A DNA stretch of 64,000 nucleotides from Rickettsiales bacterium (lineage in GTDB: Bacteria; Pseudomonadota; Alphaproteobacteria; Rickettsiales; UBA8987). The notes beneath the pieces are model-generated. The model searched no databases. It saw nothing but the letters and a program-made list of their open reading frames with translations, and had not been told where the DNA came from. Location of the stretch: NCBI GenBank assembly GCA_020630095.1, contig JAHDCD010000001.1:5698-69697 (forward strand). The letters are read 5' to 3'. This document shows, in pieces, positions 2,814 to 38,008 of this stretch (its first letter is position 1; the number at the start of each line of letters is the position of its first letter). The position numbers and the translations under genes are program-made.

Positions 2814-2892
2814 ATAGTTATTATCTCATTAAAAGATTAACTTTTTGTTAAAAATTAACTTTTAATTTAGTTTTGTGGTCTATTAATAGGCT

Positions 2893-3879: not shown

Positions 3880-4159
3880 TCAGTTTTCTACAGAAACAAT
3901 ACAAGGCACAAAGAATATAGTGGGGCCTTGCGCAGCTAATTTGGATCAGTTCGCGGGTAAGAAAATTATCTTCCATTGTAATAAAGGTGGTGGTTCAGGT
4001 AGGCATGCGAATGCAATTGTTGATAGCTTACCTTACGATATTTATAATCTTGCAGGTGGTATTCAAGCTTGGAAAGAAGCTGGATTAGCTACAGTTGCAG
4101 GTAGCGCCGATGATGTTATTGCAGGTGCTGATTCAGAAGTTAAATCTTGCTCTATTTAG
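3863..4159 (+). pseudogene. 5'-truncated second copy of the rhodanese gene (lacks the first 22 codons and its own RBS and start)
   Basis: Identical to 1802..2098. The track ORF 3788..4159 reaches it only through an out-of-frame stretch of mscS. Confidence 0.6.
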
Positions 4160-4160
4160 A

Positions 4161-4874: not shown

Positions 4875-4953
4875 ATAGTTATTATCTCATTAAAAGATTA
4901 ACTTTTTGTTAAAAATTAACTTTTAATTTAGTTTTGTGGTCTATTAATAGGCT

Positions 4954-13856: not shown

Positions 13857-16800
13857 TTAGAAGTTATACTTATAACCTAATTTAAGCACTGAATCTGATT
13901 CTTCACCACCTAAGCCTTGTTCATACTTAAAGTGACCAAATAAATTATGCTTGTTAATTTCGTTATCGTTAAACATTGAGCCATCAACACCAACACCAAG
14001 TCTTAAGCGACTGCTTGTTTCATTTTCTTTATAAGAAGTGAATGATGTACCAAGTATTTCAGCTTCAATATTTTCTTCCATTTTTATAATGTCAGCTACA
14101 ATTTCAGTTTCAATATAAGGTGAAACTAACATGTTATTTAAGATGCCGATTCTTTTATCCATTATTGCTCTAGCACCTAAGTTTGCAGATGCATAGCTAG
14201 TTGAATAATGGCTTACGTCTAAGTCTGAGATGTTATCACCAGTTTCTAGTGCTTCACCTGAGCGGATATATTGATATTCTAAGCCACCATATGGTCTGAA
14301 TAATACAGAACCTGCATGAAGATCATAACCTGCTTCGCCTTTAAAACCTAAAACATAAGTGGCAAAGTCTGAAACGCTTGTTGATGATGCTGAACCTGCA
14401 TTTGTTGTTCTTGTTACATCAGTTTTTGCTGCGTTTAAACTTGCGATACCACTTAGCTTAATGCCGTTATCTAATGCATATGAACCATAACCACCAACAG
14501 ACACAATACGAGAGCTTGAATCAAAGCCTGAATCTTCATCAATATCTTTAGTTACATAAGATACCATTGCACCTAGTTTGTAATTATCTTGTAAGCAATC
14601 ACCTGCTACAAATACACCATCAGATGATGTTGTATATTTATGGGCATTTTCACCGCCTGAACCATTACCATTAATGTAACCGCCGTAAGCTGAACATTCA
14701 TAGTTTTTAACTTTCTTATCTTTACCGAACTCGCCTACGTTATTGTAGTCGCCGGATTTACGATTTGCTTTATCTGAGGCAAATATTCTGTCATGTGCGA
14801 TATTTAAGAAGTTTGATACCGCTCTTGAGATTGAGTTGTTAGCTGAAATATAACCTTCAGCACTCATAGACTCTAACGCTGCTGTACGCTTTGTTAAATC
14901 ACTGTCATTTATATTAGCAAGTAGCGCTTGAACATCAGGAATAATGAATGTGTCATTTTCTTGAGCGGCTTTTGAGATTGAATTACAGATAGACTTAGCT
15001 TCATCAGATAAAGATTCTACATTAGCACAATCAGCTTTTGCGTAACCTAATACGGCATTTAATTCACCAGTCTCTTGATCTACTTCTTTTGTCCAAGCGT
15101 ATAGGTCGTCTTTTACAGGAGCTTCAATAACAACACCATTGTCAATAATTGCACCATTTGATCGTACTACAGTAACTTTATCACCTGGTTTTAATGAAAG
15201 TAGTTCTTCTTTATTTCTTACATTGATTTCAATAACGCCATCTAAAATTGCATTACCAGCAACTTTTAATGGTTCAATAACTGTATCTACATCATCAAGT
15301 TTTTCTTCTTCAGTAGTTTGAGTTACAATAATTTTACCATCTTCAGTTTGAACGATATCACCAACTATCATCACATTATCGCCACTTATTTCGCCTTCGT
15401 TAACTATTCTGTCAGATAAAATTACGTTTTTACCGCCACCTAGGTTAACAACACCGCCTTGAGCTATTCTTGAATTTTTTGCATCAATTGCATCATTACC
15501 TGCACCAAGATTAACTTCTGTATCTATTACTTCAGATGCTACTACAAGGTCGCTGTTTTCAGTGCCTTCAATATCTTCCTCAGTACCTTCGGATACATCA
15601 ATATTTACGCCACCTTCTTCATTACCAGCTATTTCAGCATCTTTTAATGCAGTTACAACGCATTCCCATTTACCGTTTTTACGTTGAGCAACTTCATCGT
15701 TTTCTTTATCACATAAAGGTTTTTCATCATCAATATTTGCGATTTGAGAATTGTTCCCACCGCTATTGCCATCTTCATCGCCGCCGCCACCAAGTGCATT
15801 TTGTGCTAGGCCAAGTAAACCCATGATAGCTTGAAGTGGATTAAATGCTCCGCTACCACCTAATAAAGATGATGCAGCACCTAATGGGCCATTTGAACCT
15901 GAGCCACCATAGTTGCTAGAACCACCATTACAATCTGCACAATATGATCCACCATTATATGAACCCGCTCCATCAGAAACTTTGGTTGGTTGAGGACCTT
16001 GATAGATAGGAGTGCCATCAGGTGCTGTTCCAACAATTACACCAGTTTCTTGACCAGGAATTTGAGAGATATTATTTGGAACATCAGCTTCAGCTAGGCT
16101 AAATGGATCATCAGTAGTATAAGTGATATTACCTTGAGCATCTACTATACCTGTAATTTTCTTACCATTAAGCGTACCTTCAACTACTTTTGTAACATCC
16201 TCATTAAATACAGGGTTACCTTTAGAATCTTTTACTATGCTACCATCAGCATTTGTTTTGTAGCGTGGTAATTCTTCTTTTGTAACTTTAAAGCCTGAGT
16301 ATGTAGGATCTGAACCATCAGGGTTAAGTGTTACAGTTTTTGTTTCTGTGCCACCTGCCTTATTACCACCAGATTTTAAGAATTCTGGGCTTAATTTAGA
16401 CAAATCTTGTTCTGAAGTTTGTACAGAAGCAGGTTGTGTTCCGTTTATTGTATCAACAACTTCTTGATTAGTTTTGCCTTGTCCTTTTAAATCGGTGATT
16501 TGTTCTCTAGTAGCGTTACTGAAATTACCATTAACGAATTCAACGTCACCATTTTTACCTATATCAACAATTTTATCTTTTTGAGCTATTGTAGAAGGTT
16601 GGTTAGTTTCTACAGTTTCTTTTCTGATTCTAAATTCATCATTTACAGATTTCACAGCATCTTCAACAGAAGCGCCATTTGCTCTGGCATTTCTGTATGC
16701 TTCATTAACATTTTCTGTACCAACAAGACGACCAGTATTTGTCATATGTGCGGCGCCATCTTCATTTACTCTTAATACATTATTACCTTCATGGTGTATT

Positions 16801-19800
16801 GCATGTTCAGGAAGATTTGAACCTGCATTATTAGTAATTATTTCTTTAGTTGTAGGTTGGGTTGTTGTACCTCTTGTTTTAGGAGCTGCTTCGCCACCTA
16901 ATTTTTTACCAATATTGTTTACGCCACCTAATGCCTCAACATCTGAAGCACTAATTTTTGTACCATCAGCAAATGTAGCAAAACCATCATCACCTACTGG
17001 TGAAGCTTCAAATACGCCATCTTTAGTACGAGAAATGAAATTTTTACCAGTACCAGTTTGGCCATCTACACTGCCTTCAAATGCCTCAAACTCTGCATTT
17101 GCATTAGTTGTACTTAACTTAGGTGCGGTTTTTACAGTTTTTGTAATAGTTCTAGGCTTTGCAGCTGATGCGTTTATACCACCGCCACCAAAACCTTTTG
17201 TATCGCCTAGACTTAATAGTTGGTCTGGGTCTGTAAAAGTTTCAGTACCACTAAGAATACTGCTTATTTTTTGATCAGATGCACCTAAATCTCTATAAGA
17301 TTCAACTAGGTCACGTACTTCTTTGGGAGCATTATCAGCTAATACTAAATCACCACTGGTTGAAGTAGAAAATACATTATTACCACCGCCGTTTGCTTTC
17401 CATGCTGCTTCTGCTGCCTTAGCTGCATTGTTTGCAGGTGGAAAGCGGTGAGTGAACATACCTCTAAACTTTTTACGAGATGCTCTACCGCGATCAACAT
17501 CTTCCCACTCATGAGCAACGCGTGCTTTGTTAAATCTATCTAAGGCATCTGGCATAGCATCTAATTTTCTTATTAATGCCGCTCTATCATTTGTAGAGAA
17601 ATCACCAGTTGCTCTTTGTAATACATTAAGCAAGCCGCCATATTGTTGTTTATAGCCATGACCTCCTTTAGGAATACCTGCTCCGCGGTGATGTACAGTA
17701 TCAGCTATTTGAAGTTGTAAACCTGGGTTAGTGGCATGTTTTGTGTAAGGTTCAGATAGTTCACGGAAATATTCTTTCGCATATCTTTTTGCAGCGGCAT
17801 GTTGTCCGTTCTGAACTAATGATCTTAAATGTTTTGCTTCATTTGGTTGATATCTTGCAGTAATACCGGCAACTTCGTATGCACCACCACCATCACCTGC
17901 AGGTGGATAGTAAACTTTAACATTGCCGTTTTTATCTAATCTAGCTTCTCTGCCGAAAGTAAATTCAGAAGGATCAAAGCCTGCTATTGAATTAGAAGTG
18001 GATTTTTTAATAACACCACTTTCTCTTAATTTTGATGCTTGGCTATTTAAATCAGAAAGTTTTTTTGTTTTTTCAGCTTTCTCAATTTTTTCACGTTCAA
18101 TTCTTTCTTGTTCTAATTTTGCTCTTTCATTTGCTCTAAACTCATCTGGTGTTTGAGTGGTAAGCGCATTGTGAGTCTCGTTTAGTTTACCTTCAATTTT
18201 ATCCCAATCTGCACCATTTATTACTAAATCATTATATTCTTGAGCAATTCTTCCTCTTATTTCTTTAGGAACGCTTTCATCAATTTCTAAGGCGCCATCT
18301 TGTAGTACTCTTACTGGGTTAGGTGCACTTGATGTAGTAGACGAAGTTGTTGTTCTAGGTATACTTGTAGAAATACCACCACTTGTTTCAGTAGGTGAAG
18401 AATTTGGAGTAGTAGCTGGCTCTATCGGTTGGAATTCAGGATCAAATACTGCATTGTTTGCAATTGCTTGACTTTGTTCTTCTGTAAATGGCTTTGAAGT
18501 TACATTTTCTTGTGGAGCTGTTTGGTTATTATTAGAAGTAACATTTCTGTTAGTTTGACCATTAGTCATATATGAAGTGCCATCATATTTTAGTACTAAA
18601 GTATCATTACCTTTTTGTACTTCAGCTCTCATATCAGCTATAAATTGATCATATACTTGCTGACGAGAAAGACCGCTATTATTACCATTAATACATTCAG
18701 GAGCTATACAGCCACTTGTACCAGGGTAGCCATTTCTACTAATGTGAGAAATTATACCAGTACGTAAACGATTTAGTTTTGGATCCCACATTTCTTCGAA
18801 TCTAACAACTTGTCCACCAGACCAAGATCGACTATCTCCTTCAATTTTTGTAACATCCCATTCACCTTCTGGTGCTGGGCCACTACCTCTGGCGCCTGAA
18901 ACAACGGTATAAGCTGTACCATTTAAAACTAAAGTTGAAGTACGTGCAGGATTACCAAGGTTATCAGTGTGCCCATTATTTTGTAATTGTGTGCCACTAA
19001 CCCTTCTTTCATCTCTAAGGTCTCTAGTGATTTCTGGAGGGCCAGAAGATTGTGTGCTTTGACTTGGAGCACTTGGTTGCTCTTGAGCTACTTCTTCTAA
19101 TTTAGGTTGCTCTGGTTGAGGGTAAGAAGGGCTAGTAGTAGGTCTGTTATTATTACTTATTTGACTACCTAAGCCACTAAGGCCACTCAAGATATCTGAT
19201 AATGATGAGTTGTTATCAGAATTGAAATCTACATTAGAATTGGGATTTCTTTGTACTGGAGATGAACCTGGAGTATAATTTTCTCTGTATGTATCAGCTC
19301 TAGAAGTGTTTGAACTTATAGCAGTAGGTGTGCTAGTTGGAGTTGAGCTAGCTCTGGGTGGAGTTACACTAGCATTAATACCACCAGAGTTTGACGTATT
19401 AGTAGTAGGAGAGTTTCTTTGCGTTAATGTTGGAGGTGTATAATTTGTATTATTAGATGTATTTTGCGAATTAGGGCTACCACCAATATTTCTAACATTA
19501 GCTAAAGGATTTGAAGTATTCGAAGTACTATTAGATACAGCGCCTGTAGGTGTATTTGATACAGGAGTTGTAGGTGGAACATAAGTTCCAGTTGATGGCG
19601 CACCTATATTCTTTTCAGATTGTGATACACCAGGTCTTCCATTAACTGGTGGGATATAAGCAGTATTAGGTTGGCTGTAAGAGTCACCTCTTCCTGGAAT
19701 GGTAGAATTAGGAGATGTATCACCACCTAAACCTTCGCCATTATTTGTTATAGGAAGTTCACTTCTTTCAGGGTTGTCGTATGTAGGTTGTGCATGCGGT

Positions 19801-21920
19801 GAGTTCGAAGCAAAGCCTTCACCTGTGCCTCTGTTATTTGATGTATTAGGAGCATTACCTTGATGAGAAGGAGGTGTGTATTGTGGGTTATTTCTAGGGG
19901 CCGCACCTGATAAGTCTGGGTTGTTAACTTGAGCAATATTAGAGCTTGTATTTCCCAGGCTACCATTTTCTAGTGGTTCACCGATACCAAATCTGTTTAA
20001 GCTATCAGAAATGTTTTGAGAATTTGTGATGTCGCTTATAGAGGTGTTATTTGTAGGTAAGTTTGGAGTATTTGTCTCAAAGCTTCTTTGTAAGCCATCA
20101 CCAACGGTTTCGCCACCTGTATAAGGGTTATTATTAACAACTCTTAGAGGTTGTGGGGCCTCAGTTATTCTTTGGTACTCTTCCCAAGAAATTTCACGAG
20201 GTTCATTAGCTGCACTTAAGTTACCATCTAAAGGATCAAATGGCGTTGCAGATTCGCGGTCTAAGCTGATACCATTTCTAAGAGTATCATTTACTTGACC
20301 AACTCTATCGCTGATACCATTACCAATATCTTTTACTTTGTCAGTGATTGGGCTAACTATTTTATCTGTAATAAACTCATTAGCGGTATTTATACCTTCT
20401 TTAAAATTATTTACGCCTTCACCAATAGCTTCACGAGTATTTGTAACGGCATCGCTTAAGAAATCTCTTGTTGAATCAAGGAATGAGCCATTTGAACCAT
20501 TACCAACAGCTTCACCATTAAGTGATACTTCACCAACACCTTCAAAACCGCCTTGCTCTAAATATCTAGAAACATCAGCATTTGAGATATCACCATTTAA
20601 GCTTAACGACGATGTGCCATCACCACGAACAGATATTTCGTTTAATTGATTAATATCATTTAAGCCGTTAACTGAAATGTTAGAACCATTCTCAGCAAAT
20701 ATATCACCAACTGATGAATTTGATGCGTTTACAGATAAATCTGAATTATCTAAGTTAAACTGTCCTAAGTCTGAACCATTTACGCTAATTTCACTACCAG
20801 TTGCAAATGTAGGAGTTTCAAGAGTTCTTGCATTTACGCCATCATAGCCAATCTTTGCGTTTTCAAGGTTAAAGTTATTTACAGAGATAGGTGCGCCATC
20901 AGATGTAATTGATAATTCACTATCTGTGATATTGAATTCATCACCGCCACCGATTGTAAAGGCACCTTCATCGCCAAATATTTCGTCAGTAAGGGTAATA
21001 TCCTTACCTGTAATGTTTTCTAAATTAAATGTATCATTATCAGAGATAGAACCAATTCTACCGAATTCAGTACCATCTAATGTAGCATTGTTCTCCAAAG
21101 CACTTTCTAGTGAGCCATCTTCAATTGAACCACCTTCAAATTTGATATCAGTAATTTCACCTTCAGCGGTAAGTTCACCTACGTCAGTATCTTTGGCGTC
21201 AAAAAGTACATCAGTTTCACTTGTTAATTCAGCTTCACCAATTGTTGTTCCTTCAGCATTAAGATCAATTTCGCCACTTTCAGCAAATAATGAATCAAAA
21301 TCAGTACCAATTGCTTCAAGATCAAAATTATCAGCACCTTGCGCTCTGAAATCACCAATTTCAGATCCATCAAATGTTACGTCCTCTGTACCATCTGCAA
21401 ATATTGAATCACTTGTAAGGTTGTTACCATCTATTTTTAGACCTGTTGTTTCTAGGTCCTGAATTTTAGTGTCAGTTGCATTTACATCACCTGTAACTTC
21501 AGCGTTGATAGCTTCAGAACCTTCAAATGTACCTGCGCCGTCTATTTTTACTTCAGCAGCATTACTTTCAATTAATGTTGTATCGCTACCTGAATCTAAT
21601 TTATTTGTATCTGTACCAGATATTTCACCACCTTGTGCGGCTACTATTTCATTAGCTGTTGAATTTGTAACTGCTTCACCAGAGGTTGTTGTGATATTTT
21701 GTGCATCTACATTATTTGCAGCTTCCACTTCACCATCAACAACTGTTTGGAATTTAATTTTGCCAAAGCCATGGTTGGCGAATAGATTGTCGTATGCGCT
21801 ATATGAATTGTTGTAGAAGTAAGAATCTTGCGCTGATGCGTTGCTTTGAACAGCCGTAATTAATAATGCTGCTAGTGCGCCTATATAGAATTTGAATATT
21901 TTATTACCTAATTTTTGCAT
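13857..21920 (-). CDS. Giant type Va autotransporter (2,687 aa) with a multi-module passenger
   Basis: Sec signal peptide (...AVQSNASA). Acidic G/D/E/T/S/N repeat region. About 400 aa of P/S/T/N-rich low complexity. Internal enzyme-like modules. The C-terminal ~300 aa have alternating beta-strand character and end ...LKLGYKYNF (terminal aromatic, autotransporter-barrel style). Confidence 0.85.
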   Translation of the reverse strand: MQKLGNKIFKFYIGALAALLITAVQSNASAQDSYFYNNSYSAYDNLFANHGFGKIKFQTVVDGEVEAANNVDAQNITTTSGEAVTNSTANEIVAAQGGEISGTDTNKLDSGSDTTLIESNAAEVKIDGAGTFEGSEAINAEVTGDVNATDTKIQDLETTGLKIDGNNLTSDSIFADGTEDVTFDGSEIGDFRAQGADNFDLEAIGTDFDSLFAESGEIDLNAEGTTIGEAELTSETDVLFDAKDTDVGELTAEGEITDIKFEGGSIEDGSLESALENNATLDGTEFGRIGSISDNDTFNLENITGKDITLTDEIFGDEGAFTIGGGDEFNITDSELSITSDGAPISVNNFNLENAKIGYDGVNARTLETPTFATGSEISVNGSDLGQFNLDNSDLSVNASNSSVGDIFAENGSNISVNGLNDINQLNEISVRGDGTSSLSLNGDISNADVSRYLEQGGFEGVGEVSLNGEAVGNGSNGSFLDSTRDFLSDAVTNTREAIGEGVNNFKEGINTANEFITDKIVSPITDKVKDIGNGISDRVGQVNDTLRNGISLDRESATPFDPLDGNLSAANEPREISWEEYQRITEAPQPLRVVNNNPYTGGETVGDGLQRSFETNTPNLPTNNTSISDITNSQNISDSLNRFGIGEPLENGSLGNTSSNIAQVNNPDLSGAAPRNNPQYTPPSHQGNAPNTSNNRGTGEGFASNSPHAQPTYDNPERSELPITNNGEGLGGDTSPNSTIPGRGDSYSQPNTAYIPPVNGRPGVSQSEKNIGAPSTGTYVPPTTPVSNTPTGAVSNSTSNTSNPLANVRNIGGSPNSQNTSNNTNYTPPTLTQRNSPTTNTSNSGGINASVTPPRASSTPTSTPTAISSNTSRADTYRENYTPGSSPVQRNPNSNVDFNSDNNSSLSDILSGLSGLGSQISNNNRPTTSPSYPQPEQPKLEEVAQEQPSAPSQSTQSSGPPEITRDLRDERRVSGTQLQNNGHTDNLGNPARTSTLVLNGTAYTVVSGARGSGPAPEGEWDVTKIEGDSRSWSGGQVVRFEEMWDPKLNRLRTGIISHISRNGYPGTSGCIAPECINGNNSGLSRQQVYDQFIADMRAEVQKGNDTLVLKYDGTSYMTNGQTNRNVTSNNNQTAPQENVTSKPFTEEQSQAIANNAVFDPEFQPIEPATTPNSSPTETSGGISTSIPRTTTSSTTSSAPNPVRVLQDGALEIDESVPKEIRGRIAQEYNDLVINGADWDKIEGKLNETHNALTTQTPDEFRANERAKLEQERIEREKIEKAEKTKKLSDLNSQASKLRESGVIKKSTSNSIAGFDPSEFTFGREARLDKNGNVKVYYPPAGDGGGAYEVAGITARYQPNEAKHLRSLVQNGQHAAAKRYAKEYFRELSEPYTKHATNPGLQLQIADTVHHRGAGIPKGGHGYKQQYGGLLNVLQRATGDFSTNDRAALIRKLDAMPDALDRFNKARVAHEWEDVDRGRASRKKFRGMFTHRFPPANNAAKAAEAAWKANGGGNNVFSTSTSGDLVLADNAPKEVRDLVESYRDLGASDQKISSILSGTETFTDPDQLLSLGDTKGFGGGGINASAAKPRTITKTVKTAPKLSTTNANAEFEAFEGSVDGQTGTGKNFISRTKDGVFEASPVGDDGFATFADGTKISASDVEALGGVNNIGKKLGGEAAPKTRGTTTQPTTKEIITNNAGSNLPEHAIHHEGNNVLRVNEDGAAHMTNTGRLVGTENVNEAYRNARANGASVEDAVKSVNDEFRIRKETVETNQPSTIAQKDKIVDIGKNGDVEFVNGNFSNATREQITDLKGQGKTNQEVVDTINGTQPASVQTSEQDLSKLSPEFLKSGGNKAGGTETKTVTLNPDGSDPTYSGFKVTKEELPRYKTNADGSIVKDSKGNPVFNEDVTKVVEGTLNGKKITGIVDAQGNITYTTDDPFSLAEADVPNNISQIPGQETGVIVGTAPDGTPIYQGPQPTKVSDGAGSYNGGSYCADCNGGSSNYGGSGSNGPLGAASSLLGGSGAFNPLQAIMGLLGLAQNALGGGGDEDGNSGGNNSQIANIDDEKPLCDKENDEVAQRKNGKWECVVTALKDAEIAGNEEGGVNIDVSEGTEEDIEGTENSDLVVASEVIDTEVNLGAGNDAIDAKNSRIAQGGVVNLGGGKNVILSDRIVNEGEISGDNVMIVGDIVQTEDGKIIVTQTTEEEKLDDVDTVIEPLKVAGNAILDGVIEINVRNKEELLSLKPGDKVTVVRSNGAIIDNGVVIEAPVKDDLYAWTKEVDQETGELNAVLGYAKADCANVESLSDEAKSICNSISKAAQENDTFIIPDVQALLANINDSDLTKRTAALESMSAEGYISANNSISRAVSNFLNIAHDRIFASDKANRKSGDYNNVGEFGKDKKVKNYECSAYGGYINGNGSGGENAHKYTTSSDGVFVAGDCLQDNYKLGAMVSYVTKDIDEDSGFDSSSRIVSVGGYGSYALDNGIKLSGIASLNAAKTDVTRTTNAGSASSTSVSDFATYVLGFKGEAGYDLHAGSVLFRPYGGLEYQYIRSGEALETGDNISDLDVSHYSTSYASANLGARAIMDKRIGILNNMLVSPYIETEIVADIIKMEENIEAEILGTSFTSYKENETSSRLRLGVGVDGSMFNDNEINKHNLFGHFKYEQGLGGEESDSVLKLGYKYNF
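13860..14750 (-). other. Autotransporter beta-barrel translocator domain (aa ~2390-2687; approximate)
   Basis: Amphipathic beta-strand pattern, Gly/aromatic-rich, C-terminal YKYNF. Confidence 0.7.
17421..17993 (-). other. Possible GH108-lysozyme / PG_binding_3-like module inside the autotransporter passenger (aa ~1310-1500; approximate)
   Basis: GDGGGAYEVAGITARY and LQLQIADTVHHRGAG...LLNVLQRA loosely resemble GH108 (DpGGxTxxGIT) and its helical partner domain. The EGG catalytic motif was not found. Confidence 0.3.
18576..18938 (-). other. Tlde1/DUF2778-like (YkuD-type L,D-transpeptidase fold) module inside the autotransporter passenger (aa ~995-1115; coordinates approximate)
   Basis: VSGARGSGPAPEGEWDV ... 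RLRTGIISHISRNGYPGTSGCIAPE fits the pattern SG...GPiPxGxY ... R.gf.iH......SxGCI. Confidence 0.55.
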
Positions 21921-23670: not shown

Positions 23671-24498
23671 ATGAAAAATATATCTAACGCATTGAAAAAC
23701 CATATTTCACAAGAAGTTACTACGCTGGCTTCATGTATTTTATTAAAGTTGCGGGATGGAGCTTTAATTGGCTTCACTTCTTTAGATCAAGATATTGAAT
23801 TTGAAGGAGTTTTGTATGAATCTTGTATGGGGGTAGACATTTTAGGGGCGAATACTCAGAATGATTTAAGTAATGATGATTTAGATTTTACCAGCGTGAT
23901 AGATTCGCCGTTAATGGACGAGAAAGAGTTGCGCGCGGGAAGGTTTGACCATGCCGAAGTTAGTGCGTTTTTAGTTAATTATGAAGATTTAACGCAAGGT
24001 AGGTTAATGCTTCGTTTTGGTTATTTAGGTGAGATAAAACATTCTAATGGTCGCTTTGAGGGGAAAGTTCATGGTTTAGGTAAAAAGCTTGATAAAGTTC
24101 AGGGTGATTTATATTCTAAAATTTGTCGTGCGAAGTTTGGCGATAGTAAATGCGGTTTTGATACTTCTAGCGTTACATTTACTGGTGTAGTAAGCGCGGT
24201 GGAATCAAATAAAGAGTTTACCGATAGCACACGTGCGGAGGATTCAGGGCATTTTGATAATGGTGTGATTAAGTTTATATCCGGCGCTAATGCAGGGCAA
24301 AGTATTGAAATTAAAAAGAGTTTTGCTGAGCGTGTTACGTTAATGATGGCTTTGCCGTATGATATTGCGGTAGGAGATAGTTACGAGATTACGCAAGGTT
24401 GCGATAGAGTATTTAGTACTTGCGTTGAGCGTTATAATAATGCGATTAATTTTCGTGCGGAACCGCATATTCCTGGAACATCTGCTATTGTAGGCTAA
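23671..24498 (+). CDS. GTA/phage tail hub protein homologue (RcGTA g13-like; DUF2163 / TIGR02218 with BR0599 C-terminal domain)
   Basis: TTLASCILLKLRDGALIGFTSLDQDIEFEGVLYES at the N-terminus. The C-terminus GVIKFISGANAGQSIEIK...GDSYEITQGCDRVFSTCVERYNNAINFRAEPHIPG matches the BR0599 pattern. Confidence 0.75.
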   Translation: MKNISNALKNHISQEVTTLASCILLKLRDGALIGFTSLDQDIEFEGVLYESCMGVDILGANTQNDLSNDDLDFTSVIDSPLMDEKELRAGRFDHAEVSAFLVNYEDLTQGRLMLRFGYLGEIKHSNGRFEGKVHGLGKKLDKVQGDLYSKICRAKFGDSKCGFDTSSVTFTGVVSAVESNKEFTDSTRAEDSGHFDNGVIKFISGANAGQSIEIKKSFAERVTLMMALPYDIAVGDSYEITQGCDRVFSTCVERYNNAINFRAEPHIPGTSAIVG

Positions 24499-26829: not shown

Positions 26830-28251
26830 TTAATCCTTAGGAGTTACCATATTTTCAGGAATAACCCATTCATCGAATTGTTCAGATGTTAAAAGTTCTA
26901 GTTCAAGGGCAGCTTCTTTTAAAGTTGAGCCGTCTGCGTGGGCCTTTTTAGCGATCTTAGTTGCGTTATCATAACCGATATGTGGGTTAAGTGCAGTTAC
27001 TAACATTAAAGATTCGTTCTTTAGCTTAGTAATGCGCTCTAAATTTGCTTCAATGCCGTTAACGCATTTTTCAACGAATGAATTCATGCCATCAGTTAAA
27101 AGGGTAATAGATTGAAGTGTGTTGTAAATCATTACCGGTTTAAATACGTTAAGTTCAAAGTGACCTTGAGAACCGGCGATAGAAACTGTGGAGTGATTAC
27201 CCATAACTTGTGTGCATATCATAGTTAAAGCTTCAACCTGAGTTGGGTTAACTTTACCTGGCATTATAGATGAACCAGGCTCATTTGCAGGTAAAGAAAG
27301 TTCGCCTAAACCACAGCGTGGGCCAGAGCCTAAGAAGCGGATATCGTTAGCGATTTTCATTAATGAAACGGCGATAGAGTTTAATGCGCCTGAAAGTTCA
27401 ACGATAGCATCATGTGTAGCTAGCGCTTCGAATTTGTTAGGAGCTGTAATGAATGGAAGGTCAGTCTCGATTGCTACGTTTTTAGCAAATTCTTCAGCGA
27501 AGCCTTTCTTTGAATTAATACCTGTACCAACTGCAGTACCGCCTTGTGCTAGTTCATAAACTGCAGGAAGGGCATTATCAACACGGCGAAGGCTGTTTTT
27601 AATTGCTTGAACGTAGCCTGAAAATTCTTGGCCAAGCGTTAAAGGAGTTGCATCTTGAGTATGTGTTCTACCGATTTTTACGATATCTTTAAATTCTTCC
27701 TGTTTAGCTTCTAAAGCTTCTAAAATATTGTGTAATGCAGGGATAAGCTGATGATTAGTTTCTTCCGCTGCGGCAATATGCATAGCAGTTGGGAAAGTAT
27801 CGTTTGAGCTTTGCCCCATATTGCAATGGTCGTTAGGGTGAACAGGGTCTTTAGTGCCAACAGTTCCACCAAGTGCTTCAATGGCCACGTTAGCAATAAC
27901 CTCGTTAGAGTTCATGTTGCTTTGTGTACCTGAGCCAGTTTGCCATACAGATAGTGGGAAGTTGTCGTATAATTCTAATGAGATAACTCTATCCGCGGCG
28001 TTTTGAATTGCTTCACCTATGTTATTATCAAGAACACCAAGGTTAACATTAGCCTTAGCGGCCGATTTTTTAACGATACCAAGCGCGCGTACTAAGCTTT
28101 CCGGCATTTTTTCAATACCGATAGGGAAGTTAATTAATGAGCGTGCAGTTTGCGCACCCCAGTATTTATTGCTTGGTACTTGTAACTCGCCAAAGCTATC
28201 CGATTCTGTTCTGTATTCTGTGTTCATTTCTTCTTTTAATAAAGCTGACAT
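26830..28251 (-). CDS. fumC: Class II fumarate hydratase
   Basis: Signature [27 protein letters not shown]; 473 aa. Confidence 0.95.
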
Positions 28252-28362
28252 GCTGGAGTTTATAATGATTAATTTTGTCTATATCAAGTATAGGCAACGA
28301 GAGTTTTTATATTAATTTAAAAAATTAACATTTTCTTAAATAATATGAAGTAAAATTACCAA

Positions 28363-30801
28363 GTGACTAAAGACACTATAAAAATATTCTTCGTTGATGA
28401 TCAGCCTCGGGTTCAAAATAATTATATGGAAGAGGTTAAGGATGTATTATCAAGGGAAAATATTAATTTTGAGTATCAGATATTTTCTGGTGCCAGAGCT
28501 TTGTCTCAGGAATTAGAGAAAATTCACTCTGAGGGAGGGGGGTTACCGGATTCCGTTATGATTGATTATATTTTTGGAGGTAACGAAGTGGGTCTTAATG
28601 TTGCCCAAACGATGCTTGATCCAAAGTTTGAGGGAAGTCTGCATGAAGAGTTTTATCAAGATATTGAGTGGTTTATGTGTACCTCTTCGTCAAGGCGTGT
28701 AAATGAATCGCCATTGATACAGAGTTTAAATTGGGGAAGGTATGAAGGTGAAAGATGCATTAATAAGGAGGAGTTTGTAACACTTCTTCGATCTTTCAGT
28801 AAAAAGCCTAAAGAAATGTTTCCTTTGTTATCTTACTTTAACTATGCGCTTGATTTAGGTATTAAACCTAGAGATGCAGAAATTGAAGGGGCTGAAGGTG
28901 ATAAAAATGTTGAAGCTTTAAATAACTTTAAGGTTGGACCTAACATGGGGGATACAGCTATGCAGCTTGATCCTGATAGTCTTAGAGAGAGTTTAACCCC
29001 GAGTTATAAAAATTTAGATAATGATCCTAAATTTTTTAGATTTAGAAAATTTTCAACTGATCCAATAAGGGGTAAGCTTTGTTTTAACTCTGAAGATATA
29101 GAATCAGCTCTTAATTCAGAGGATAAGGCTATTATAGTTCTACAAAGCTTTAATGAATCGGAATTGGATTTAATTAATAATGCGGATGGTGTTGTGGTTA
29201 TTGGCTCAGGTAGTTCTCATGCGCTAGAGATATTAAGGGCATTGAATAAGCCATATGTTACTGATTTACAAGATTATGATTATAAAAAGAAGGATGGCGG
29301 TTTAGGTTTTTACCCATGTGCTAGGGTTGATACTATTGATGGAGAATTGGCCTTAATAAGTATGGATCATAGAGTTAGTAGGGCAATTGGAAATTATATT
29401 TCTGGGAAAGCTGAAGCTATTGATATTGATTATGAGGGAGCTTCGGATGATTATTATTTAACAGCTGGAAATGCAGTTACCTTAGTTAGTGGAGATTTAG
29501 TTTCTACGGAAGTTGAGATAGATAATTCTTATGCAAATGATGAGTTTGTAGAGAGGCTATTAGATTTTACTATTTATACTAAATATTTATGTAAGGGGGT
29601 AAGGGTTTCGGCAGCAGTTGATAGTGCTGATGTATTGCCTGAAGTTTTTGAAAGTACTTTGGATATAGGATTAATAAGATCTGAGCATTTAATTTTGGGA
29701 GATGATACCGTTGGAGTAAAGCAGCTACTTAAAGAAATAATTTTAAGTGAAGAGGGGGTATCTGAGGATCAAGGAAATAGATTAAAAGAAGAGTTATCTA
29801 CCTCTGTGGAAGGTCTGTTTGAGGCTGTTAAGATGGAGTATAATGGAAAATTTAATATAAGGCTTTTTGATTTAACTTTAGATGATTTTTTTACACAGCA
29901 AGAAATTGAGGAGATTCATGCTCGTTATGGTGAGCAAGGAGTTAATGGAACTCAACTAGCTAATCAGATTGAGGGGCTTTATGAGGCACAAATAGATGTG
30001 TTGATGTTAAATTTTATTAAAGCTCATGGACAAAATCTTAGTAGTAATGCCTATGAATCTGAGAATAAGGATTATAATAGGGATGCATTTGATGACTTGC
30101 AGAGGTCTGAAATGAGCGTAATGTTGCCGCATGTTAAAACAGCTGAAGACGTTGTTAGATATAAAGAATATGCTAAGAACTCAATGGAAAAGGCTATGAA
30201 GCAGGAAGAGAATAGCTATGAAGTGAGTTTTATTAAACGTGAAAAGTGTCTTGATAGTATTGAAGGGTATGAGCCTCCGTATAAGTTTGGGGCGATGGTA
30301 GAAACATTGGAGGCTTGTGAAAATATTGAAGATATAGCAAGAGAATGTGATTTTATTAGTATTGGAGCTAATGATTTAACTTCGGCGGTTCTTGGTATTG
30401 CCAGAAACGATATTGAGGCAATTAGAGATTATCAATATGAAAATGATGGCCTTAATCCATTTGAAACTCTTTGTCCTGAGGTGAAGGAGAGAATTAAAGA
30501 TATTTATACTAGAGCTAAAGCGGCTAATCCTGATCTTGAGATTAACTTATGTGGTCGTCAAGGGGCGGATATTGAGGCCATAAAAGTCTTGGATGAAATT
30601 GGTTTTGACTCTGTTTCTGTTGATGCTGAAAAGAGTGTATTTATTCCAGCATGTGTTGAAGCATTGCAGTATCATATTCAAAAAAAGAAGTTGCAAGAAG
30701 AGGGGAAGGGAGGGGGCTTGTCTGAGCAGTCTTCAGCTCCTAATCCTCAGCAATGCTATAAAGGTAATTCTTTTCCTAAAGGGGTGAATCAGAGGCAATA
30801 A
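28363..30801 (+). CDS. Receiver (REC)-like domain fused to a PPDK-like phosphohistidine swivel domain and PEP/pyruvate-binding TIM barrel; no ATP-grasp domain
   Basis: REC pattern: FVDDQ (D12/D13), VMIDYIFGGNEVGL (D68), FMCTSSS, CINKEEF (K135). Swivel: VVVIGSGSSHALEILRALNKPYV (H286). Barrel: IGLIRSEH, NIRLFDLTLDDFF, MLPHVKTAEDV, GAMVETLEA...DFISIGANDLTS...RND, LCGRQGADIEAIKVLDEIGFDSVSV. GTG start. Confidence 0.65.
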   Translation: MTKDTIKIFFVDDQPRVQNNYMEEVKDVLSRENINFEYQIFSGARALSQELEKIHSEGGGLPDSVMIDYIFGGNEVGLNVAQTMLDPKFEGSLHEEFYQDIEWFMCTSSSRRVNESPLIQSLNWGRYEGERCINKEEFVTLLRSFSKKPKEMFPLLSYFNYALDLGIKPRDAEIEGAEGDKNVEALNNFKVGPNMGDTAMQLDPDSLRESLTPSYKNLDNDPKFFRFRKFSTDPIRGKLCFNSEDIESALNSEDKAIIVLQSFNESELDLINNADGVVVIGSGSSHALEILRALNKPYVTDLQDYDYKKKDGGLGFYPCARVDTIDGELALISMDHRVSRAIGNYISGKAEAIDIDYEGASDDYYLTAGNAVTLVSGDLVSTEVEIDNSYANDEFVERLLDFTIYTKYLCKGVRVSAAVDSADVLPEVFESTLDIGLIRSEHLILGDDTVGVKQLLKEIILSEEGVSEDQGNRLKEELSTSVEGLFEAVKMEYNGKFNIRLFDLTLDDFFTQQEIEEIHARYGEQGVNGTQLANQIEGLYEAQIDVLMLNFIKAHGQNLSSNAYESENKDYNRDAFDDLQRSEMSVMLPHVKTAEDVVRYKEYAKNSMEKAMKQEENSYEVSFIKREKCLDSIEGYEPPYKFGAMVETLEACENIEDIARECDFISIGANDLTSAVLGIARNDIEAIRDYQYENDGLNPFETLCPEVKERIKDIYTRAKAANPDLEINLCGRQGADIEAIKVLDEIGFDSVSVDAEKSVFIPACVEALQYHIQKKKLQEEGKGGGLSEQSSAPNPQQCYKGNSFPKGVNQRQ

Positions 30802-30832
30802 AAAAGCCCCGAAATTAGCGAGGCTTTTTAAG

Positions 30833-30871: not shown

Positions 30872-31372
30872 TTAGAAACCTTGAACGTTTCTTCTAACGT
30901 TAATTGTACCGCCGCTTCTAGTTCTAACTGAAGTAGACTTGCGAACAACTTCGCCACCTTTTCTAACTACAACTTTCTTTACAACTTTGCCAGTTTTAGG
31001 GCAAAGTTCTTTACCTGTGTGTGGGCATAATAACTTACCAGATTTAGGGCAAATTTTTCCACCTGTTTTTGGACAGATTTTAGCGCCAGTAGTTGGGCAG
31101 ATCTTTGCACCAGTTTTAGGACAGTATTTGTTACCAGTAACTGGACAAATTTTAGCTCCAGTCTTAGGGCAAATTCTACCTTCAGAATGTAAACGCTTAC
31201 CAGTTAAAGGGCAAATTTTACCAGCTTTTTTGTGGTGATGCTTACCAGAGCTGTGTGAATGTCCGTGTGCTTTATGCTCAGAGCATTTGCAATTAGCACA
31301 AGCGTTGGCGTTTAATGAAAAGCCAGCAATTGTTAAAATTGATAAGGCTGTTAATGTCAGTAATTTTTTCAT
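30872..31372 (-). CDS. Secreted basic protein with an N-terminal Cys/His cluster and nine CPx(T/S)G octapeptide repeats
   Basis: Signal peptide ...LNANA; CANCKCSEHKAHGHSHSSGKHHHKK; repeats [IL]CPxTGxK with an 8-aa (24-nt) period across nt ~30986-31216. Confidence 0.6.
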   Translation of the reverse strand: MKKLLTLTALSILTIAGFSLNANACANCKCSEHKAHGHSHSSGKHHHKKAGKICPLTGKRLHSEGRICPKTGAKICPVTGNKYCPKTGAKICPTTGAKICPKTGGKICPKSGKLLCPHTGKELCPKTGKVVKKVVVRKGGEVVRKSTSVRTRSGGTINVRRNVQGF

Positions 31373-31434: not shown

Positions 31435-31728
31435 TTATTTTCTGCCGAAGTCATCGCTAGAAATAAAGCCGTCGCCATTTTTATCACGTTGGCTGAATTT
31501 CTTTGCAGCGCCGTTTAAAAACTCATCCATAGAGATACTGCCGTCGCCGTTAGTATCCTGCTTGTAGAAGTTTTTCTCTCTAAATGCGTTAAATTCAGTT
31601 TTAGAGATTTTCTTATCAGCGTTAGTATCCATTCCACTTAAAACGCGCATATGATTTTTTTGCGCTTCGGCTGATGGTGCTAATGCTAGGATAGCGAAAC
31701 TTACTGCTATTGTTAAAACTTTTATCAT
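31435..31728 (-). CDS. Secreted EF-hand calcium-binding protein (three EF loops)
   Basis: Signal peptide ...SAEA; DTNADKKISKTEF, DTNGDGSISMDEF, DKNGDGFISSDDF. Confidence 0.75.
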   Translation of the reverse strand: MIKVLTIAVSFAILALAPSAEAQKNHMRVLSGMDTNADKKISKTEFNAFREKNFYKQDTNGDGSISMDEFLNGAAKKFSQRDKNGDGFISSDDFGRK

Positions 31729-31752
31729 AAATAACTCCTATTACTTACCTGT

Positions 31753-32451
31753 TTATTTTGCAAACTTTTTCGTTAGCTCGCCGTGAATTGATTTACCATT
31801 GCCTATGGTTCTTTTGTGCTTAGGCTTATAGTGGTGGTTGTTACCATATCTATGCCCATAGCCGTATCTACGACCATGATTATAATAATTACCATACCCG
31901 TAATAATGATCATGCCCTATTGGTGAGCGATAATAGTGACCACGTGATGGTACTGTGAAACCCCAAGCCCAACCTCTGTAAGGGTAGCGTGAGTAATGGT
32001 GGCTATCAACGTAACCTTGAGTATAGCCATCGTTATAGTCGTTCCATGTGCCGTAAGATGAATAATCTTTATTATAATAGCTTGAGCGCTTTAATTCGCG
32101 TTGAGTAACTACTTTGTCGCCATTTCTGTCGATACTATGGAATATTTTGGCAGCTTTTAAGCGTACTTCAGCGGGGCGGATGATACCGTTATGGTTTCTA
32201 TCAATCTCATAGAATTTCCATTTTGGGTAGCCTGCGCGCTTTGCTTCGTATTTTGTTAGTACTTTGTTGCGATTTCTGTCAGCTTTATGGAATAGTTTTA
32301 GTTCATTCTCAATAAGCTCGTATTTTGATAAATAACCATCATTGTTATTATCTCTTTTGTCGTTGTTATGATTGTGATTTTCATGTGCCACTGCATTACC
32401 CGCAAGTGCTAGAGTAAGTGCTAATGAAAATGTTTTTATATATTTTTTCAT
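31753..32451 (-). CDS. Secreted protein with four degenerate EF-hand-like loops and a Tyr/Gly/His/Arg/Asn-rich C-terminal tail
   Basis: Signal peptide ...GNAVA; HENHNHNND; DNNNDGYLSKYEL, DRNRNKVLTKYEA, DRNHNGIIRPAEV, DRNGDKVVTQREL; tail ...HYYGYGNYYNHGRRYGYGHRYGNNHHYKPKHK. Confidence 0.6.
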   Translation of the reverse strand: MKKYIKTFSLALTLALAGNAVAHENHNHNNDKRDNNNDGYLSKYELIENELKLFHKADRNRNKVLTKYEAKRAGYPKWKFYEIDRNHNGIIRPAEVRLKAAKIFHSIDRNGDKVVTQRELKRSSYYNKDYSSYGTWNDYNDGYTQGYVDSHHYSRYPYRGWAWGFTVPSRGHYYRSPIGHDHYYGYGNYYNHGRRYGYGHRYGNNHHYKPKHKRTIGNGKSIHGELTKKFAK

Positions 32452-33979: not shown

Positions 33980-34774
33980 ATGCTTTTAGTGTCTAAAAAG
34001 GTTTTAAATACAATGTGGTTGGAAGCCACCTTCCCTAAAGATAGAGATGATAAGGAGGTTGAGATACTTAACTTAAATATGCGAAATGCTCTTGTTAAGG
34101 TGGCAAAAGATTGTGAAGAGCAGAGAGTTAGTGCAGATTGTTTGTTTTGGATGGATTTTGATAGGCATAGTGAATCAGAATTAGAAGATATAGGAAGTTT
34201 TATATCTGAGAATGCTCCAAGTATAAAGATAAGGAATCTTAGAGATATTGAAGAATATCAAGATAATGAACTGTTCCAAAATTCTGATTTAGCAGAGACA
34301 AAAACTTTAAAAAGTAATTTAATATGGCGTCAAGTTGATTTGGCAAAGGTTATAATATTAAGGGACAGCATTGCAGAAGATAAAGGTGGCTATGATTTTG
34401 CGTTGTTTACAGACATTGATATTGGTAATGCTGTAGAGTTGTTTCCTAAATCAGATTCAAAGAAAATAGTTGTTGGTCTAGAAGAAGTTAGGCTGGAAAA
34501 CCAAGTATTTGGTTTTTCGGTTGATAGATCTGATTTACTTCAGAAATTGTATGAAATTACATTGAAAGATACTACTGAAAAAGGACTTAATGGCTGGCAC
34601 TCGCTCAAAGCTTTTTTAAAAGATATAAAAGGAAATATGAGTCCTTATAGAAATGAAATAAAAGAGCTTGCTGTAGAAACTAACAGAGGTGCAATTGCAC
34701 CAAGGGCAACAGTTTTTAAGCCAGAGGAGCCTAAACCTCTAGTTGCTCAATCTACAGAAGCTGAAGTTGATTAA
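33980..34774 (+). CDS. Hypothetical protein with a DXD glycosyltransferase-like motif (GT44 / Gly_transf_sug-like); candidate secreted effector
   Basis: NTMWLEATFP (compare hfIWiG); VDLAKVIILRDSIAEDKGGYDFALFTDIDI (compare sDxxRxxiL...GGxYxDxD). No signal peptide. Confidence 0.35.
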   Translation: MLLVSKKVLNTMWLEATFPKDRDDKEVEILNLNMRNALVKVAKDCEEQRVSADCLFWMDFDRHSESELEDIGSFISENAPSIKIRNLRDIEEYQDNELFQNSDLAETKTLKSNLIWRQVDLAKVIILRDSIAEDKGGYDFALFTDIDIGNAVELFPKSDSKKIVVGLEEVRLENQVFGFSVDRSDLLQKLYEITLKDTTEKGLNGWHSLKAFLKDIKGNMSPYRNEIKELAVETNRGAIAPRATVFKPEEPKPLVAQSTEAEVD

Positions 34775-36466: not shown

Positions 36467-38008
36467 TTGATACAGGTTATAGGAAATATAGAACAGGTAG
36501 TTAAATCTGTTGAATCCAATGCGCAATTAGACGCAGACCTGTCCACGCAATTAGAAAATATGTCACCGCTTGCTTTACACAGATTAAAGCAACAGGCTCA
36601 TCAACAGCTTAAGGATAAAGAAGGTGCAAGGCAACTTGGTTTCTTTAGAAAGATTGATGCTATTGAAACACAAAGAGCGGCGGAAGAAGAAGCGTCATTA
36701 GATACTTATAAAGTTGACAGCATGATATCTGGTTTTGCTGATACACAAGATCCAATTGAAAAATTAGAGCAGGAAATGGCTAAGCAACAAGCCGCAGATT
36801 TTATGAGTACTTATTCAGAGTATCTTTTAGAAGATGCTAAGGAGGTTGAGGCTCAAGCTCAAGGAAATAACCCAGATAAAGTTCTTGGTATTAAACTGGA
36901 TAAGTTAACCGAAGAAGAAAAGAAACTAGTTAACCAAATGGTTGATGAGTGGGATTTACAGGGTAAAGGTGATGCTAAGAAGTTAGCTACTTTATTACTT
37001 GGCGCTTCAGATGAAAGATCTGGAAAAATATTATCCGCGATTGATATAAACGACGTATCTATGGAAGATAGGTTTGAAGTTGCTGTTATGGTTAAGCATC
37101 AAGAGGAGATTAGAGAAGATGCTAAAGATTTATCAGGAGATTTGATTGATAAAATTGAAATTTCTGGTGGATTAGATGCTATTTCATCTGAACTGGCAGA
37201 ATTATCTAAAAATGGAGAGGCTCTTGGTGAGGATAAAGCTAGAGAGCTGATTGAATCTAATGAAGTTTTCCAACAAGAGATTAAAGCTGCAGCAGAATTA
37301 AGAAGTAAGTCGGGTATGTATAACGATATTGTTGAGCATAAAACCTTACTAAGAGAGCAATTTGGTTTAACTGATGATGATAAAATAGCTGAGAATAAAG
37401 ATGAAGTGAATGCTTTATTATCTAGAGATGATGAAGCTGCTAATTTTTTAAAGAAAGCTATTAAGGCGTTAAGCGAGAAAAAAACTATTCGATCTGATGA
37501 GCTTGCTGAGGGTGAGATTCTAGGTGAGAATGAATTATTAGAAAGCGATATTGATGTTTCGGATGTAGATTTTGATTTTACAGTTAATACCTTAAATCGT
37601 GATGAAGAACGAGCTTTAGAAGAGTCTTCATTAAAAGAAGCAATTACAAAAGAAATTGGTGCCAAGAATGCTGTTGGTATGGTGGTTGAACGGGTAAGCA
37701 CAAGGTCTCTTATAGGTTCAAATGAGAACGATATAAAAGAGGTATCAGGACGTAAGTTGATAACTTCTGATCTAGGAAGTTTATCTTTGAAGTTAAAAGG
37801 AGATGATAGCAAGGTTTTACACCATGAGATTCCTGAGCAAAGTAAGCAGAGTCATTCACCTAAAAATAGTGCTCAAGAAGTAATAGCGGATAGAGCAAGG
37901 GGTGAGAATAAAAATAAAGATGTAATATTAGAGCAAGGAAGAACATCTGCTACAGATAGAACTATTAATGATGAAATTAGTAAAGAAAATTTAATTTTAG
38001 GAAGGTAA
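36467..38008 (+). CDS. Hypothetical acidic, coiled-coil-rich protein (513 aa); TTG start
   Basis: Long ORF with an AAGAGG RBS and E/K/D/L-rich heptad-like sequence. No family recognised. Confidence 0.5.
   Translation: MIQVIGNIEQVVKSVESNAQLDADLSTQLENMSPLALHRLKQQAHQQLKDKEGARQLGFFRKIDAIETQRAAEEEASLDTYKVDSMISGFADTQDPIEKLEQEMAKQQAADFMSTYSEYLLEDAKEVEAQAQGNNPDKVLGIKLDKLTEEEKKLVNQMVDEWDLQGKGDAKKLATLLLGASDERSGKILSAIDINDVSMEDRFEVAVMVKHQEEIREDAKDLSGDLIDKIEISGGLDAISSELAELSKNGEALGEDKARELIESNEVFQQEIKAAAELRSKSGMYNDIVEHKTLLREQFGLTDDDKIAENKDEVNALLSRDDEAANFLKKAIKALSEKKTIRSDELAEGEILGENELLESDIDVSDVDFDFTVNTLNRDEERALEESSLKEAITKEIGAKNAVGMVVERVSTRSLIGSNENDIKEVSGRKLITSDLGSLSLKLKGDDSKVLHHEIPEQSKQSHSPKNSAQEVIADRARGENKNKDVILEQGRTSATDRTINDEISKENLILGR

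Follow-up and report, generated by a model that had tools for sequence, protein, structure and literature searches.

Locus and protein architecture

The window analysed here is a 64-kb stretch of contig JAHDCD010000001.1 of a Rickettsiales bacterium. Its forward strand carries, at positions 28363-30801, an intact open reading frame (ORF) that begins with GTG and encodes a protein of 812 amino acids, named P0001 below, with fumC as its head-to-head neighbour (Table 1). P0001 combines an N-terminal domain resembling the receiver (REC) of two-component systems with the linkers, the phosphohistidine swivel and the phosphoenolpyruvate (PEP)-binding barrel of pyruvate phosphate dikinase (PPDK), whose ATP-grasp domain it lacks. 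This arrangement may permit a phosphoryl group to pass from PEP, by way of the swivel histidine, to an aspartate of the receiver-like domain.

PPDK-derived core

Pfam analysis of P0001 identified the PEP-utilizers_C domain (PF02896) at residues 413-757 (E 5.2e-24), and the swivel domain (PF00391; residues 253-312) scored 20.7 bits with the whole protein and 22.9 bits with a fragment, against a cut-off of 23.1. The best NCBIfam match was PPDK (TIGR01828) at 109.2 bits versus a cut-off of 843.45; Enzyme I of the PEP-dependent phosphotransferase system (PTS; TIGR01417) reached 44.4 bits versus 341.7, and PEP synthase models also fell far below TIGR01828. Plant and bacterial PPDKs likewise ranked first in a search of PDB sequences, with Enzyme I weaker. 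When the family of P0001 (described below) was aligned with canonical PPDKs using hhalign (E 5.2e-87), family columns 150-721 corresponded to PPDK columns 319-884. In P0001 this homology spans residues ~150-776 and begins only at PPDK residue ~310-320. It takes in the last part of the nucleotide-binding domain as well as the swivel and the barrel, each with the linker that precedes it. The first linker bears the family motif LRxxLNxxxGxxxP, which in P0001 reads LLSYFNYALDLGIKP.

A structural model predicted with AlphaFold2 (AF2) from a 56-sequence family alignment had a predicted local distance difference test score (pLDDT) of 85.3 and a predicted template modelling score (pTM) of 0.84; prediction from the single P0001 sequence gave a pLDDT of only 36. 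PPDK was the best Foldseek match of the full-length model (1vbg, 3.6e-30, ~630 columns), followed by Enzyme I, and pyruvate kinase was also found. The swivel histidine, H286 (in GSGSSHALEIL), aligns to the GGMTSH motif of PPDK. The barrel sites are R439 and E441 (IGLIRSEH), R500 (IRLFDL), E647 (GAMVETLEA), N670 and D671 (IGANDLTS), R681, and C730 (LCGRQGAD), and on the strength of these alignments the PPDK-type PEP/pyruvate active site is predicted to be complete, with all residues for that partial reaction present. Both the alignments and the AF2 model place a beta-rich insertion of ~50 residues (~303-352) after the histidine helix; PPDK is without it and it varies by lineage, occurring in P0001 and some of its relatives.

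The PPDK_N ATP-grasp domain (PF01326) gave no Pfam match in P0001 or in 19 relatives scanned, and residues 1-340 of PPDK, used as a phmmer query, matched none of 72 family members. Since the ATP-grasp core is absent and a receiver-like domain stands in its place, the chemistry of ATP, AMP and pyrophosphate is impossible for this protein. A tblastn search of the window found no canonical ppdK or pts genes there. A first-pass annotation, made from the sequence alone, had aligned the C-terminal part to the swivel and barrel of PPDK, noted the missing ATP-grasp domain and ruled out the full PPDK reaction. The alignment is borne out by hhalign, Foldseek and PF02896, and the absence by Pfam, phmmer and the start of the hhalign match at PPDK column 319, which leaves the full reaction excluded; the motifs and residue numbers given there all agree with the translation and the alignments. 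Judged by sequence, the core of P0001 clearly descends from PPDK.

N-terminal receiver-like domain

Residues 1-171 of P0001, when searched alone, matched nothing in Pfam (including PF00072) or among PDB sequences, and PF00072 matched one of 32 family N-termini, at E 0.18. The domain is therefore a divergent receiver, recognised only through family profiles and the structural model. A profile of the 32 N-termini (residues 1-150) found CheY, Rcp1, PhoP, YycF and dozens more receivers in PDB, with E values from 2.4e-6 (best) to 1e-2. Comparison with a canonical REC set (CheY, Spo0F, PhoB and NtrC; n=4) using hhalign gave a probability of 95.8% (E 7e-9), the alignment extending from strand 1 to strand 4 and pairing D12/D13 of P0001 with D12/D13 of CheY and D68 with CheY D57. 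In the AF2 model, residues 1-147 form a (beta-alpha)5 fold (pLDDT 71-94), in which five strands (5-11, 35-41, 64-68, 102-107 and 132-134) alternate with five helices; as a fold test this is at the level of topology. The acidic pair (D12 and D13, in KIFFVDDQ), the acceptor aspartate (D68, in VMIDYIFGG), the Thr/Ser (T107, with S108 next to it) and the lysine (K135) of receivers are all present in P0001; in the model they are found at the C-terminal ends of strands 1 (D12/D13), 3 (D68), 4 (T107) and 5 (K135). Foldseek with the full-length model listed PPDK, Enzyme I and pyruvate kinase alone, and no receiver-domain structure.

The top PDB matches of the N-terminal profile were designer pentatricopeptide repeat (PPR) proteins (E 1e-30), which were rejected as an artefact of repeat summation. 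Their source is a 23-residue motif, EEALxxLxxWxxxGxxPD(I/V)V, running from helix 2 to strand 3 (residues ~44-68); the E value is spurious because this single motif is matched anew by each PPR repeat, with an E of ~5 for one repeat. The motif is a pitfall for automated annotation of the family.

The CheY-like residue pattern proposed in the first-pass annotation is thus upheld in part: the family profile, hhalign and the AF2 fold speak for a receiver, while PF00072 is blind to it and the family as a whole does not keep K135. Among the Pfam domains named there for checking, PF02896 was found, PF00391 lay marginally under its cut-off and PF00072 was absent, and the structure prediction yielded the anticipated (beta-alpha)5 N-terminal fold. 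On the evidence of profile comparisons and the model, residues 1-147 are a remote and atypical member of the receiver superfamily that lies below the Pfam threshold.

Distribution and conservation of the family

An exhaustive search of representative sequences showed that the architecture of P0001 recurs in at least 72 clusters, defined at 50% identity. This count derives from an N-terminal hidden Markov model (HMM), which matched 72 of 158 fetched proteins, 40 of these 72 being absent from the HMM build. In the exhaustive search dozens of relatives of 700-800 residues outscored every canonical PPDK; one full-length relative, P0005, aligned over residues 4-779 with residues 4-780 of P0001 (E 1.3e-95). 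Pfam analysis of the relatives showed the barrel, at times the swivel and never PPDK_N. Word-indexed searches started from P0001, from the alignment of the whole family or from that of the N-termini returned P0001 itself, canonical PPDK and Enzyme I, or nothing, and a tblastn search of plasmids with residues 1-302 gave no match. The relatives come mostly from uncultured Alphaproteobacteria and carry the GenBank label 'hypothetical protein'; the named members MBI1326893.1 and NBX66578.1 are from metagenome-assembled genomes (MAGs) of Alphaproteobacteria or Proteobacteria. A metagenome scan with the barrel-segment alignment yielded four full-length members (L093-L096), of which L094 appears identical to the P0156/L083 locus. 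A separate scan of genome contigs yielded canonical PPDKs, and among its matches only the truncated L001, from an Alphaproteobacteria MAG, may be a member. P0001 is a singleton at 90% identity.

D68, H286, R439, R500, E647 and D671 are conserved in all 72 members, and E441 (71/72), C730 (71/72) and N670 (68/72) are near-invariant barrel sites. The other receiver positions are S/T107 (71/72), D13 (66/72) and D12 (49/72, otherwise Gln or Asn). As D68 is found in 72 of 72 members, like H286 and the PEP site, the presumed acceptor aspartate is under equal constraint, and the alignments indicate that the REC-like phospho-acceptor pocket is under strong constraint.

These observations bear on the possibility that the N-terminal domain is a pseudo-receiver, that is, a structural or dimerisation remnant without phosphochemistry, or that the gene is a 5'-rearranged, decaying ppdK. 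The missing Pfam REC match, the unconserved K135 and the singleton status of P0001 would agree with such an explanation, which is nevertheless very improbable given 812 intact codons, a terminator of its own, at least 72 diverged relatives, the invariance of D68 and a confident AF2 model. No ATP-grasp remnants were found upstream at the P0001 locus or at the relatives' loci examined, and this, together with the invariant catalytic residues in at least 72 clusters, rules out the decaying ppdK that the first-pass annotation had named as an alternative. By these sequence comparisons P0001 is not an orphan, its gene is not a ppdK in decay, and the protein belongs to a sizeable unannotated family.

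Several members depart from the architecture of P0001. An extra N-terminal REC precedes the family receiver in P0019 and is above the Pfam threshold (40.4 versus 30.2 bits). Family-type receivers occur in tandem in P0055 (two), P0138 (two) and P0064 (five), the last being a protein of 1444 residues from a Joint Genome Institute (JGI) metagenome in which all five copies precede the swivel and barrel and each carries the DD and D motifs. Other members have uncharacterised N- or C-terminal extensions. Two paralogues, P0010 (locus L081) and P0057 (L099), are encoded on different contigs of MAG GCA_016125135.1 and fall into different 50%-identity clusters. A role as secreted effector, considered in view of the C-terminal extensions of some members and a type IV secretion system in the window, found no evidence and was rejected.

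Genomic context of family loci

No conserved operon was found across ~14 independent loci examined. At three of them the family gene lies head to head with a gene of the tricarboxylic acid (TCA) cycle: fumC for P0001 (spacer of 111 bp; window 26830-28362), acnA at L090 (365 bp; 2966-6000) and sdhB at L095 (124 bp; 3372-4293). At L083, citrate synthase and PrpD are encoded 3-5 kb from the family member. At L081 a hybrid PAS-HisKA-HATPase-REC kinase is encoded 70 bp upstream of P0010 on the same strand, with flagellar export genes adjoining, and at L096 genes for a response regulator of the OmpR type and for a histidine kinase with a HAMP domain lie directly upstream of the member, also on the same strand. 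Because the numbers are small and the patterns were noticed after the fact, both the TCA and the kinase associations are leads only. The family genes may be co-regulated with central carbon metabolism, fumC being a possible co-regulated partner of the P0001 gene.

The kinase genes of L081 and L096 are what would be expected if the protein were a regulated, Enzyme-I-like phosphotransferase, in which a cognate kinase phosphorylates D68 and so switches the autophosphorylation of His286 from PEP on or off, the phosphoryl group then passing from His286 to an external acceptor. The added canonical REC of P0019 would suit this model, as would the two paralogues in one MAG, a frequent feature of signalling families, and the beta-rich swivel insertion could serve as a docking site for a partner. 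Kinase, Hpt or HPr-like neighbours are absent, however, at most of the loci examined, the P0001 window included; Pfam found no HPr-binding subdomain (PF05524) in P0001 or the relatives scanned, and no conserved candidate acceptor was found at the loci examined. This explanation, drawn by analogy with the GAF-domain form of Enzyme I (EI-Ntr), is the main rival to the one favoured below, and we regard it as unlikely.

The TCA neighbours would suit instead a catalytic role for the receiver. The protein would be a PEP phosphotransferase or phosphatase in which phosphorylated Asp68 is an intermediate like that of HAD enzymes, to be hydrolysed or passed to a small molecule, implying a net turnover of PEP to pyruvate tied to central carbon metabolism. 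Besides fumC, acnA, sdhB and the citrate synthase/PrpD genes near the L083 member, it could explain why the family keeps the active-site aspartate, the acidic pair and the Ser/Thr but loses the lysine used in signalling, and PEP synthase and rifampin phosphotransferase do pass the phosphoryl group of a histidine to a substrate-binding domain (PMC4844700). Against this, no substrate pocket was identified, receivers in tandem and more than one paralogue per genome are atypical of a metabolic enzyme, futile hydrolysis of PEP would come at a high cost, and the TCA neighbours amount to three of ~14 loci noticed post hoc. Such a role, with the PEP turnover that it implies, seems rather improbable.

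Proposed phosphotransfer from PEP to Asp68

The interpretation that we favour, with confidence a little short of even, is that P0001 transfers a phosphoryl group from PEP to His286 and from His286 to Asp68; it is the simplest one and had been proposed in the first-pass annotation. A divergent receiver has taken the place of the ATP-grasp core (PPDK residues 1 to ~310), with the linkers, swivel and barrel kept. PEP bound in the barrel would phosphorylate His286 and pyruvate would leave, as in the partial reaction of PPDK and Enzyme I, leaving the phosphoryl group on the histidine; the swivel would then take this group across to the station at the N-terminus, here the receiver's acidic, Mg2+-binding pocket (D12/D13 and T107), where Asp68 would be phosphorylated. 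The fraction of phosphorylated Asp68 would thereby track the PEP/pyruvate ratio. Phosphorylated Asp68 could produce an output through a conformational or partner-binding switch, pass its phosphoryl group to a two-component partner, or be hydrolysed. The domain make-up, the sequence homologies and the conserved residues described above are what is shown; from them we infer both transfer steps and the fate of the phosphorylated aspartate.

The receiver sits where PPDK has its second catalytic station, and both PPDK linkers, which permit the swivel to move between two stations, are kept in the family. It is the receiver domain itself that catalyses its phosphorylation by a phosphohistidine donor, and mutants of CheY lacking K109 can still be phosphorylated. 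A number of observations weigh against direct transfer from His286 to Asp68. The receiver lysine is not conserved, with 12 Lys and 5 Arg at position 135 among the 72 members, and Pfam is blind to the REC-like domain. Tandem arrays of two to five receivers are a poor fit to a model with a single second station. The histidine kinase genes upstream of the family gene at two of ~14 loci fit phosphorylation of D68 from outside. Finally, the root-mean-square deviation of the AF2 model is smaller against the maize and Flaveria PPDK conformers than against those of Clostridium symbiosum, and the model suggests a swivel facing the PEP site. The transfer from PEP to Asp68 proposed here, the Enzyme-I-like model and the catalytic model overlap and are not fully exclusive.

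Two major phosphotransfer systems operate in bacteria: PEP-driven phosphohistidine systems (PPDK, PEP synthase and PTS Enzyme I) and ATP-driven His-Asp two-component systems. To our knowledge, the two are known to interact only indirectly. The P0001 family joins a swivel histidine of the PEP-charged type directly to a receiver aspartate, both invariant over at least 72 diverged clusters. It is possible, and put forward here tentatively, that the protein is a PEP-fuelled His-to-Asp relay within one polypeptide, without a histidine kinase, in which PEP/pyruvate is read out as receiver phosphorylation, and that it may feed two-component pathways or control TCA genes in host-associated Alphaproteobacteria. 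If true, this would be a new, kinase-free route for charging a receiver, from PEP, and a single-protein sensor of the PEP/pyruvate node. As the family is labelled 'hypothetical protein' and its N-terminus is in no Pfam or NCBIfam model, defining it would improve the annotation of many alphaproteobacterial MAGs.

Gene signals and other features of the window

The GTG start of P0001 is supported by the N-termini of its homologues, which align from residue 1-4 of the protein; the corresponding start of P0005 is MPDQKLKILFVDDD. The AT-rich intergenic region shared with fumC is the presumed promoter region of the P0001 gene. Two sigma-70-like matches within it (28316-28344) are no excess over shuffled sequence, and no obvious Shine-Dalgarno sequence precedes the GTG. 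The terminator-like hairpin downstream was overlooked by a pattern scan because its stem has one mismatch; from its sequence it is probably bidirectional, serving both the P0001 gene and the convergent gene that follows. With an upstream region of its own (111 bp) and a hairpin/T-run terminator, the P0001 gene looks monocistronic. The C-terminal tail of P0001 (pLDDT <50 at residues 787-812) is not conserved in the relatives and is probably disordered in view of the model.

Table 1. Features of the P0001 gene, its product and other parts of the window
Feature	Position	Strand	Description or basis
P0001, whole gene	28363..30801	+	REC-like/swivel/PEP-barrel protein, 812 aa
Divergent REC-like domain, residues 1-147	28363..28803	+	AF2, family profile, hhalign, conservation
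REC-like domain sites	D12/D13 28396-28401; D68 28564-28566; T107 28681-28683; K135 28765-28767	+	
Helical linker, residues 148-213	28804..29001	+	Last part of PPDK nucleotide-binding domain and first PPDK linker; hhalign, MAFFT
Phosphohistidine swivel (central) domain, residues 214-390	29002..29532	+	PF00391, H286 conservation, AF2
Catalytic His286	29218-29220	+	PPDK alignment; 72/72 in family
Beta-rich swivel insertion	29269-29418	+	Alignments, AF2
Second linker helix, residues 391-410	29533..29592	+	AF2 helix 393-409; aligns to PPDK linker
PEP/pyruvate-binding TIM barrel, residues 411-780	29593..30702	+	PF02896, PDB, Foldseek, residue conservation
Tail, residues 781-812	30703..30798	+	Gly/Gln/Lys-rich
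Divergent intergenic region	28252..28362	.	111 bp, common to P0001 gene and fumC
fumC	26830..28251	-	Class II fumarate hydratase; translation; head-to-head neighbour
Terminator-like hairpin	30806..30829	.	GCCCCG...CGAGGC, flanked by A6 and T5; read from sequence
Convergent downstream gene	30872-31372	-	166 aa
EF-hand protein genes	31435-32451	-	97 and 232 aa
Duplicated 2061-bp unit with MscS-like channel gene	1800-3860 and 3861-5921		Channel protein of 328 aa (first copy, truncated) and 412 aa (second)
Gene for protein with autotransporter beta-domain	13857-21920	-	2687 aa
GTA/phage baseplate-hub gene	23671-24498	+	Phage_phiJL001_Gp84_N and Phage_BR0599
Type IV secretion genes	53532-61306	+	731 and 1843 aa
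ORF without Pfam match	12463-13779	-	438 aa
ORF without Pfam match	33980-34774	+	264 aa
ORF without Pfam match	36467-38008	+	513 aa

The convergent gene downstream of P0001 encodes a probable secreted protein with a His-rich stretch and ~10 degenerate KICP(K/T)TG Cys-Pro-Lys repeats, encoded by a 24/48-nt tandem repeat. It has no Pfam match and, from this composition, could be a metal-binding protein. Beyond it are two adjacent genes for EF-hand proteins with signal peptides, the larger having a low-complexity C-terminal half rich in His, Tyr, Gly and Asn. Eukaryote-like calcium-binding EF-hand proteins are unusual in bacteria.

A VirB4/TrbE ATPase gene is followed by one whose giant product has a CHAP peptidoglycan-hydrolase domain at its N-terminus and also a TrbL/VirB6 domain. 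This type IV secretion module is reminiscent of Rickettsiales and suggests a host-associated alphaproteobacterium. The sole Pfam match of the 2687-residue protein is a C-terminal autotransporter beta-domain, the passenger of ~2400 residues being without a recognised domain. A lone gene of gene transfer agent (GTA) or phage baseplate-hub type is situated in the interval from dnaB to dxs, with no GTA cluster visible around it, and at L091 the family member adjoins GTA genes; both fit an alphaproteobacterial origin. The MscS-like channel gene lies within a tandem duplication of 2061 bp whose copies are 100% identical, which could be a very recent event or an assembly artefact. All proteins of the window that were looked up were singletons among ~15 billion sequences, which shows how sparsely the source lineage has been sampled.

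Comparison with known systems

PPDK (EC 2.7.9.1; TIGR01828; PDB accession nos. 1vbg, 5jvj and 1kbl) shares with P0001 collinear, homologous linkers, a swivel histidine and a triosephosphate isomerase (TIM)-type barrel, and its active-site set of Arg, Arg, Glu, Asn-Asp and Cys is intact in the P0001 family. The family differs in having a receiver-like domain and no ATP-grasp domain, and P0001 has in addition the swivel insertion. The plant PPDK regulatory protein targets a threonine two residues ahead of the catalytic histidine; in the P0001 family this position is Ser, Ala or Thr and the regulatory threonine is not conserved. P0001 thus has the swivel histidine and barrel residues of PPDK, and is placed outside that enzyme by the absence of ATP-grasp and by its equivalog score.

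Enzyme I and its nitrogen-related form EI-Ntr (PtsI and PtsP) resemble P0001 in joining a His domain to a PEP barrel without ATP-grasp. In EI-Ntr a sensory GAF domain is fused to the N-terminus of the PEP-driven, autophosphorylating core, whereas P0001 has a receiver there, and P0001 may likewise couple PEP status to signalling. Unlike Enzyme I, P0001 has a core that groups with the PPDK clade by both sequence and structure; it lacks the helical HPr-binding subdomain PF05524 and scores far below the cut-off of TIGR01417, which places it outside Enzyme I.

With two-component relays (CheY, Spo0F and transfer from Hpt to REC) P0001 has in common a receiver-type fold that carries its acidic pair, aspartate and Ser/Thr in canonical places, and, as a proposal, the transfer from phosphohistidine to aspartate. 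It differs in that the proposed donor is a PEP-charged swivel histidine rather than an ATP-dependent kinase or the four-helix bundle of Hpt, and in that the family has mostly lost the lysine and has a REC-like domain below the Pfam threshold.

The first-pass annotation knew of no characterised REC-swivel-barrel protein. This holds as far as function is concerned, a literature search having found the architecture undescribed apart from one census mention, but fusions of REC and PPDK, which may or may not share this exact architecture, had already been recorded: the 2018 census of archaeal two-component systems (Galperin et al.; PMC5847659) contains 'REC-PPDK' entries (OLS32769, OLS27346), described as Bacteroides-like and seen in Heimdallarchaeota, with no function described. 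Compared by the description in the census only, those entries were found via a canonical REC, whereas the receiver of the P0001 family escapes Pfam.

PEP synthase and rifampin phosphotransferase (PMC4844700) use the same principle of a mobile phosphohistidine moving between two stations, one of which is exchangeable. These enzymes keep the ATP-grasp station and exchange the other, whereas P0001 exchanges ATP-grasp and keeps the PEP barrel.

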